A stretch of 4,779 bases of DNA from Escherichia coli (lineage in GTDB: Bacteria > Pseudomonadota > Gammaproteobacteria > Enterobacterales > Enterobacteriaceae): assembly GCF_965641715.1 (NCBI RefSeq), contig NZ_OZ282459.1; one strand, 5' to 3'. The translations under genes and the position numbers were made by a program. This document shows positions 1 to 244 of this stretch, one piece after another; within the stretch, counting starts at the first letter, position 1; each line of letters opens with the position of its first letter. Below the pieces are notes generated by a model that was given only the letters and a program-made list of their open reading frames with translations, made no database searches and was not told where the DNA came from.

Positions 1-244
1 GGAAATATGAATACAGATCTTCTTTTGACATTTCCATCAGTTCTTCAACTGATTTATGTGTCATTCTCCTTGTTGCTAAAATAATCTCCTCAACGAGATC
101 GGAGCGTTTTAATTTGCTTGGGTTCTTTGGAAGTAAATTACCAAAGGATTCAATTAGCTCGGCATTAGTCATTTCACTTTTATCCAAGCCAGCTTTAGCT
201 CCCTCAACGCCAAGCCAAGATATCAGTTTTTGGATATCTATCAT
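1..244 (-). CDS. Hypothetical protein, N-terminal 81 codons only (ORF runs off the window start); translationally coupled to the upstream ParA-like gene
   Basis: Minus-strand ATG at 244..242 overlaps the ParA-like stop TGA (243..241) in an ATGA arrangement. GAGGA Shine-Dalgarno lies 7 nt upstream, inside the ParA 3' end. Open frame reads MIDIQKLISWLGVEGAKAGLDKSEMTNAELIESFGNLLPKNPSKLKRSDLVEEIILATRRMTHKSVEELMEMSKEDLYSYF... with no stop before position 1. Absent from the ORF track only because it is truncated. No motif I recognise. Confidence 0.5.
   Translation of the reverse strand, partial: MIDIQKLISWLGVEGAKAGLDKSEMTNAELIESFGNLLPKNPSKLKRSDLVEEIILATRRMTHKSVEELMEMSKEDLYSYF

Follow-up and report, generated by a model that had tools for sequence, protein, structure and literature searches.

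A conserved ATGA overlap joins a ParA-like ATPase gene to an all-helical partner gene in a mobile two-gene cassette

The 4,779-bp stretch of Escherichia coli DNA that we analysed, here called the window (contig NZ_OZ282459.1), is a whole circular ColE1-type mobilizable plasmid in permuted form. It carries a gene for a ParA-like ATPase followed by a gene for a small partner protein, and the two meet in an ATGA stop/start overlap. All coordinates below are window positions, and both genes lie on the minus strand. The arbitrary linearisation of the circle splits the partner gene, and its two parts are given separately in the list of features, together with the open reading frame (ORF) of the ATPase and the Shine-Dalgarno (SD) sequences of both genes.

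The stop/start junction and its conservation

1125..241, minus strand: ParA-like ATPase gene, an ORF of 294 aa with its stop codon TGA at 243-241
1132..1136, minus strand: SD of parA, AAGGA, 6 nt before the ATG, the sole upstream element conserved among relatives
256..252, minus strand: SD-like GAGGA within the ParA codons Met-Arg-Thr, 7 nt 5' of the partner ATG
244..241, minus strand: ATGA stop/start overlap, composed of the partner ATG (244-242) and the ParA TGA (243-241)
244..1, minus strand: 5' part of the partner gene, codons 1-81 plus one base, ended by the window edge
4779..4622, minus strand: 3' part of the partner gene, which crosses the circular junction, with its stop codon TAA at 4624-4622

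The ParA-like ORF ends in the codons ATG AGG ACT TGT CGA TGA, and the minus-strand sequence of window 260..238 is TTATGAGGACTTGTCGATGATAG. The initial annotation had described an ATGA at 241-244 that joins the ParA-like gene to its partner, and a GAGGA embedded in the 3' coding end of ParA; both are present as described. It had given the overlap as 1 nt, which needs correction: the genes overlap by 4 nt (the -4 or ATGA class), and the TG is shared by ATG and TGA. The class with a 1-nt stop/start overlap is TAATG or TGATG.

When 244..1 is joined to 4779..4622, an unbroken partner ORF of 133 aa is obtained in the same frame. It is identical to the 402-nt coding sequence annotated in NZ_CP129389.1, which there overlaps parA by 4 nt. 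In this clade ParA has a tandem TGA-TAG stop at 243-238 (minus), with the TAG stemming from the partner codons ATG ATA GAT; the second stop is absent in relatives with ATGATTGA. The duplex of the partner GAGGA with the anti-SD has an energy of -6.0 kcal/mol, within the top 3.5% of sequence windows inside parA. The ATGA tetranucleotide is by itself unremarkable, with 44 occurrences in the window against 37 +/- 5 expected.

To see how far the junction is kept, we compared 21 distinct homologous ParA-partner pairs, taken from plasmids and chromosomes, from metagenomic contigs and from a single viral contig. The stop/start overlap is present in 21 out of 21, with 4 nt in 18 pairs (17 ATGA and one GTGA), 1 nt in two and 13 nt in one, and no pair has an intergenic spacer between the genes. 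The final ParA residue varies (R/P/K/I/L/V), yet its codon invariably has, in third position, the A or G needed for the partner start codon. Elsewhere in parA the synonymous sites are saturated, only 38% of the codons being identical among identical residues. It is thus the conserved position across pairs, and not the tetranucleotide itself, that makes the overlap non-random. In about half of the pairs, the window copy among them, the partner SD is strong (-6 to -8.6 kcal/mol); in the others it is unremarkable, with -2.2 to -4.1 kcal/mol. As all pairs have the overlap and only about half have a strong SD, the conserved element is the overlap and not the SD, and a conserved overlap fits termination-reinitiation.

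As a junction type the ATGA overlap is ordinary and among the commonest bacterial gene arrangements. About 15% of co-directional bacterial gene pairs overlap; among the classes of overlap -4 ranks first, and -4 and -1 far outnumber the others (PMC6728339, PMC10666635). Experimentally, -4 overlaps were strictly coupled in 13 out of 14 tested gene pairs, and such overlaps are over-represented among genes for the subunits of heteromeric complexes (PMC6728339, PMC10666635).

Judged from its sequence, the junction most probably serves to couple the translation of an ATPase and an adaptor that form an obligate pair. Ribosomes that terminate ParA at the TGA would sit on the partner ATG and could re-initiate there, helped in the window copy by the embedded GAGGA, and the partner would therefore be made whenever the ATPase is made. 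The coupling proposed in the initial annotation is reasonable in the light of the overlap in all 21 pairs, the precedent of the tested pairs and the co-divergence of the two proteins (r = 0.89, see below). The fixed stoichiometry and the complex that it also proposed go further than the sequence does. Two points weaken the case for coupling. The strong GAGGA of the window copy would also permit independent initiation at the partner, and folding of the mRNA over 310..190 (minus) gives only a weak 6-bp hairpin over the SD, which is not significant (z = -1.5).

These two points also bear on an alternative, that the overlap reflects genome compaction only and that the partner is mainly initiated independently at its own GAGGA, with no mechanistic link of expression. 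The strong SD at optimal spacing (-6.0 kcal/mol, 7-nt spacer) and the lack of a significant occluding RNA structure agree with it, and 4-nt overlaps are so common that a single one is little proof of coupling. However, every homologue has the overlap and only about half have a strong SD, which suggests that the overlap itself is selected. Compaction also sits poorly with a third base of the final ParA codon that is fixed despite the amino-acid change, and with strict coupling in nearly all of the overlapping pairs tested by experiment. We consider it unlikely, though it deserves to be taken seriously.

The ATPase and its partner

The upstream product, annotated as a ParA family protein (WP_001505259.1), is a bona fide ParA/Soj-class ATPase according to its motif, profiles and fold. 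The deviant Walker A motif, K11-GGVGKT17, is located at the extreme N-terminus, and the residues of Walker A, A' (D39-A-D41) and B (D149) are invariant in 35 homologues. Two Pfam families match above their gathering scores, AAA_31 (E 8.8e-26, 91 bits, cut-off 27) and CbiA (E 1.1e-9, 38.7 bits, cut-off 25.4), and the PHROG database gives a match to 'ParA-like partition protein' (E 1.2e-37). The protein scores below the cut-offs of the NCBIfam equivalogs ParA_partition (E 2.6e-18), PrgP, RepA, SopA and MinD. The AlphaFold (AF2) model has a predicted local distance difference test (pLDDT) score of 91, and the best Foldseek matches in the PDB are Soj, McdA, ParA and the delta protein of pSM19035, with template modelling (TM) scores of 0.7-0.8, E-values of about 1e-15 and 15-22% identity.

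The ATPases of this type form a sharply bounded subfamily of roughly 1,300 hits, with at least 53% identity within it and at most 32% to other ParAs, a value that also holds for the nearest other ParAs in viral contigs. The best 120 database clusters are 293-297 aa long when full-length, at least 67% identical, and come from Alpha-, Beta- and Gammaproteobacteria. In the metagenomic copies L008/L009 (9121-9998) and L010 (1-839), parA is frameshifted; these are either pseudogenes or assembly errors (L numbers denote loci in our comparison).

The partner is an all-helical protein of 133 aa, for which a structure model shows eight helices with a pLDDT of 90.5. It has no Pfam, NCBIfam, PADLOC or PHROG family and gives only sub-threshold matches to Rho_N and HTH_26, and it carries HeH/SAP-like motifs. 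A profile search of 1.84 billion representative proteins recovered only 148 clusters, and no structural relatives were found in PDB profiles or viral structure predictions. The partner belongs to an undescribed family or fold. Across the family it has a conserved N-terminal motif, M-I-D-x3-L-I-x-W-L-G-x2-G-A-x-A-G-L, an invariant Arg47 within a KLKR motif, and a conserved C-terminal motif, EISDIGMYRRVAKG, that contains an invariant Arg126. Longer homologues proved uninformative: their extra length is due to disordered tails, to a duplicated N-terminal module or to C-terminal regions that are unrelated.

According to the reading that we prefer, the ATPase most probably acts together with the partner as its cognate adaptor or regulator. 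The HeH/SAP-like helices of the partner may supply nucleic-acid binding, and one of its terminal motifs, the N-terminal WLGxxGAxAGL or the C-terminal EISDIGMYRRVAKG, may contact or activate the ATPase.

An ATPase with a small adaptor could also distribute a non-DNA cargo or a protein assembly, as McdA and McdB do in the positioning of carboxysomes. The ATPase resembles McdA in structure (TM 0.72-0.81), the partner is a small helical protein without a classical DNA-binding domain, and some chromosomal copies of the pair lie outside mobile elements. Such a role is nevertheless highly improbable, as none of the contexts shows a conserved third gene or a cargo gene in linkage with the pair, and the patchy horizontal spread over plasmids, islands and prophage-like elements is unlike that of a housekeeping positioning system.

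The cassette, its contexts and its host plasmid

Wherever the partner occurs, an ATPase of 294-297 aa is encoded directly upstream, and the partner was also found downstream of two ATPase homologues that had been picked independently. The pairwise identities of the two proteins are correlated (r = 0.89, Mantel 0/5000), and the partner diverges faster, with a mean identity of 51% vs 71% for the ATPase. Nucleotide homology with the copies in Pectobacterium and Yersinia extends from 12-30 nt before the parA ATG to the stop codon of the partner, and the upstream sequences of 19 loci have nothing in common except the SD. Given these homology limits and the unrelated upstream DNA, the cassette consists of the two ORFs only. 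In 12 out of 13 contexts the gene that precedes the cassette has the same direction, which together with the lack of a conserved promoter hints that the cassette depends on external transcription.

The family is rare. It is carried by 12 out of 100,044 species genomes, by 34 out of 72,556 plasmids and by 20 out of 5,426 complete E. coli genomes, in the last case always on plasmids of roughly 5 kb and mostly from pigs. Literature searches, made with the accessions and on ParA-type defence systems and orphan ParAs in islands, gave nothing on this family. An identical cassette is found on an 8.9-kb ColE-type plasmid (L002, pSE11-03671, NZ_MK360094.1) that bears the colistin-resistance gene mcr-5.1.

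In Vogesella the pair is solitary between a GGDEF gene and mutS, in Alteraurantiacibacter between thiC and an Impact-family gene, and in Aeromonas just after glyQS. In Hydrogenophaga and Zoogloea (loci L023 6210-10432 and L020 343-4569) it starts 25-35 nt after a C5-methylase gene, in the same direction and with an integrase nearby. This methylase closes a three-gene cluster of a Menshen NsnA match (E 3.7e-52), a HEPN protein of the MAE_28990 type and the C5-methylase itself, with which the pair may be co-transcribed. In Pectobacterium an integrase-bounded island contains the pair together with TacAT, a remnant of CcdA and a KAP NTPase that matches PDC-S49 (E 2e-99), and in prophage-like loci of Pseudomonas the pair follows a Dam methylase gene and precedes the gene for a trypsin-like protease.

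The Vibrio splendidus copy (L034 3709-15110) belongs to an element of about 11 kb that encodes an integrase and an S24 repressor, a replication protein of the gpA type, two Ogr/Delta proteins, and capsid and portal proteins of the P2 type. There the pair is located between the gpA-type replication gene with Ogr on one side and the capsid and portal genes on the other. In P2-like phages of E. coli the interval from gpA to portal is the old/tin defence hotspot (PMC9122126). The Vibrio element as a whole is akin to a satellite or a capsid-forming island.

Several copies of the pair have toxin-antitoxin (TA) genes in their neighbourhood, and the pair itself could be an addiction-like system in which the unrestrained ATPase is harmful, e.g. 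by interference with the nucleoid or with division, and the co-translated partner neutralises it; the overlap would then guarantee the antidote. This would suit an overlap-linked two-gene cassette of sporadic distribution, its solitary islets between core genes, and its TA neighbours, which are ParDE and RES on the Y. ruckeri plasmid, Fic/VbhA and RelE on that of Acidovorax, and TacAT and CcdA in the Pectobacterium island. Toxins usually show higher conservation than antitoxins, and so does the ATPase compared with its partner; the frameshifted parA copies in L008/L009 and L010 would also agree. However, the Pfam, PADLOC and NCBIfam scans found no known toxin domain, and no conserved promoter-operator moves with the cassette, unlike in typical type II TA systems. 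The extreme conservation of a full ParA, catalytically intact by its sequence, fits an ATPase machine better than a simple poison. We therefore regard this alternative as very unlikely.

The pairing of a ParA-like gene with a small partner on a plasmid had implied a partition pair in the initial annotation, an implication that the wider comparison does not support. The layout is that of type Ib: a small ParA that lacks a DNA-binding domain at its N-terminus and, after it in one operon, the gene of a small partner. The partner is neither a ribbon-helix-helix (RHH) protein of the ParG/omega kind nor a centromere-binding protein of the helix-turn-helix (HTH) or ParB type. In eight loci the DNA upstream of parA contains no iterated repeats, neither tandem arrays nor meaningful families of repeats were found anywhere on the window plasmid, and related cassettes have no conserved flanking DNA. 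There is no island of synonymous constraint along parA, so there is no sign of a hidden internal centromere.

Larger plasmids that bear the cassette have their own partition genes. On the 16.9-kb Y. ruckeri plasmid pYRKMM821_1 (L014; 1-911, 2169-3451), the cassette is accompanied, 1.2 kb away, by a canonical type Ib parA-partner operon with a 95-aa partner and a 4-nt overlap of its own. The 49-kb Acidovorax plasmid pAV3334-1 (L015/L033) has parA-parB beside repA and also StbB, and its cassette is far off among Fic/VbhA, RelE and umuDC. Two or three ParA-type ATPases are thus present on one replicon in these plasmids. The host replicon here is of the multicopy ColE1 type. With canonical par loci elsewhere on the same replicons, solitary copies in chromosomes and a multicopy host, the pair does not resemble the partition locus of its replicon.

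A type Ib-like active partition, in which ParA would pattern on the nucleoid, the partner would be a new centromere-binding adaptor that stimulates ParA, and the overlap would set the ratio of ParA to adaptor, nonetheless has several points in its favour. Gene order, gene sizes and the 4-nt overlap are like those of type Ib par operons, and the canonical par operon of Y. ruckeri has the same overlap. The fold of the ATPase is closest to the segregation and positioning ATPases Soj, McdA and delta, NCBIfam ParA_partition matches with E 2.6e-18, although below its cut-off, the HeH/SAP-like motifs of the partner are compatible with DNA binding, and every E. coli copy is plasmid-borne. On the other side are the lack of centromere-like repeats in the cassette, next to it or elsewhere on the plasmid and of conserved flanks, the lack of a synonymous-constraint island in parA, and a partner that is neither RHH nor HTH/ParB. 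To these are added a multicopy ColE1-type host with what we take to be a cer-like site, the canonical par next to rep on the larger cassette-bearing plasmids, and the solitary chromosomal copies between core genes. Taken together, we find a partition role quite unlikely.

The remainder of the window is the ColE1-type backbone and the sequences that flank the pair:

1222-1324, minus strand: RNA I (Rfam RF00106, 95.6 bits), with its end 97 nt before the ParA-like ATG and in the same direction as that gene
1182-1187 and 1206-1211, plus strand: TTGACG and TACTCT, which we take to be the divergent RNA II promoter by its likeness to ColE1/pUC
4595..4619, minus strand: hairpin of 11 bp with the loop GUG and a 3' arm ending in a U run, just after the partner stop codon, a candidate operon terminator
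4395..4580, minus strand: DUF2158 ORF of 61 aa (Pfam PF09926, E 2.4e-6), with its own AGGA SD, downstream of the hairpin
4329-4356, plus strand: GGTGCGGGCAA-CGGATG-TTATGGTAAAT, which resembles the XerC/XerD core of cer, the multimer-resolution site of ColE1

Window bases 1-1300 are 100% identical to several Escherichia and Salmonella plasmids of 4.8-5.1 kb, including the 4,779-bp pR13.1986_4k (NZ_CP129389.1), and near-identical to porcine plasmids of enterotoxigenic E. coli. In the 97 nt that separate RNA I from the parA ATG, promoter and terminator scans revealed no convincing sigma-70 promoter, and parA may be expressed from a weak local promoter or by read-through from RNA I. Multimer resolution of the cer type is the usual stability device of ColE1-type plasmids.

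The hairpin at 4595..4619 has a minimum free energy of -15.8 kcal/mol (z = -2.2), and equivalent hairpins are found 3' of the partner in L016 and in L014; it is a probable terminator of the operon. The order partner-hairpin-DUF2158 is seen again in a ColE1 plasmid of Enterobacter (58% identity) and in one of the Yersinia ruckeri plasmids (41% identity), and the DUF2158 ORF is absent from all other loci, chromosomal copies included. It may be an optional third gene. We rejected it as an obligatory third component, since it follows the pair in only three enterobacterial plasmid lineages.

The ParA-partner-DUF2158 block (4380-4779 plus 1-1125) has 35-40% GC, compared with 58% in the ori/mob backbone (1260-4250), which identifies the block as foreign cargo; the cassette by itself has 37-40% GC. 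The mobilisation region at 2154-3972 (plus strand) contains other compact overlaps. There, a MobC/MbeC-like ORF (2154-2474) overlaps the start of the relaxase (ATG 2464, MIVKFHPRG...) by 11 nt, and an MbeB-family ORF (3152-3637) lies within the relaxase ORF in a different frame and is followed by MbeD (3641-3853). The PLSDB gene table lists no relaxase coding sequence for this plasmid.

Interpretation and comparison with known systems

The reading that we favour, tentatively and at somewhat less than an even chance, is that of a coupled ATPase-adaptor operon in a mobile accessory cassette of the conflict type, directed against phages or other mobile genetic elements or addiction-like in nature, and not of a partition locus. 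The pair would then be a self-contained mobile cassette, promoter-less and centromere-less, that is carried as low-GC cargo on a ColE1-type plasmid. More specifically, it might be an undescribed mobile two-gene non-partition system, a module for defence, exclusion or addiction in which a ParA-type switch, controlled by its co-translated partner, acts against phages, plasmids or cells that have lost the cassette. This is possible, but doubtful.

A number of observations weigh against such a role, in addition to the points on independent initiation given above. In PADLOC-DB v2.0 no described or candidate system matched the pair: the ATPase matches only the P-loop region (residues 5-51) of PDC-M28B, with E 9.2e-6, the partner has no credible match, and no recognisable effector domain was found in either protein. 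Several copies are located between housekeeping genes without a defence gene nearby, and the defence-type neighbourhoods, about four out of 13 contexts, are anecdotal. The family is nearly absent from phages, with none in 50,697 phage genomes and one in 2.9 million viral contigs. The pI of the window partner is 6.3, compared with the basic value that is common for DNA-binding adaptors. Finally, a single non-repeated binding site within the coding sequence is possible, and would allow a non-canonical partition role.

The ATGA overlap alone teaches nothing new. The interest lies in a bounded ParA subfamily that is always tied to an uncharacterised helical partner and that moves among small plasmids, islands, a P2-type element and islets between core genes. 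If the pair is a conflict or defence module, a ParA-type ATPase would be added to the immune and addiction machineries, and caution would be needed with the automatic annotation of a 'partition protein' on small resistance plasmids, including the mcr-5 plasmid. If it is a partition system after all, the partner would represent a new class of centromere-binding protein with an unconventional cis site.

Among known systems, the pair is a variant of the theme of a ParA with a small partner; what is new is the undescribed fold of the partner, the absence of an accompanying centromere and the mobile distribution. With the type Ib par operons (ParF-ParG of TP228, delta-omega of pSM19035 and ParA-ParB of pB171 par2) it shares an N-terminal Walker A motif, a small partner in the same operon, often a 4-nt overlap, the expectation that the partner activates the ATPase, and an ATPase fold that matches delta and Soj. 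It differs from them in that the partner is all-helical with HeH/SAP-like motifs and not ribbon-helix-helix, and in that no centromere or operator repeats travel with the genes. Further, the ATPase, at 294 aa, exceeds typical type Ib ParAs by about 80 residues, and the cassette is found on plasmids that already have a par locus as well as alone in chromosomes.

McdA-McdB and other systems of a ParA/MinD ATPase with an adaptor likewise combine a ParA-fold ATPase with a small, fast-evolving and mostly helical adaptor that lacks a ParB domain. However, the window pair has no cargo genes and is found on mobile elements and in defence-type neighbourhoods, and its partner has no sequence relation to McdB. 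The coupled -4 (ATGA) pairs (Huber et al. 2019, 2023) are like the window pair in having co-directional genes, a shared ATGA and an SD that lies within the 3' end of the first gene. In both cases the products are expected to cooperate, and the window junction has no distinctive trait of its own.

Small two-gene cassettes for anti-phage defence or abortive infection, which are found on plasmids, in islands and in P2/P4 hotspots, also resemble the pair in being compact and overlap-linked, in their patchy horizontal spread and in being low-GC cargo. Unlike them, the window pair has no PADLOC family or recognisable effector, and several of its copies are without defence neighbours. As in such cassettes, members of the family adjoin Menshen, PDC-S49 and TA genes, and one occupies the interval between gpA and portal in a P2-type element.

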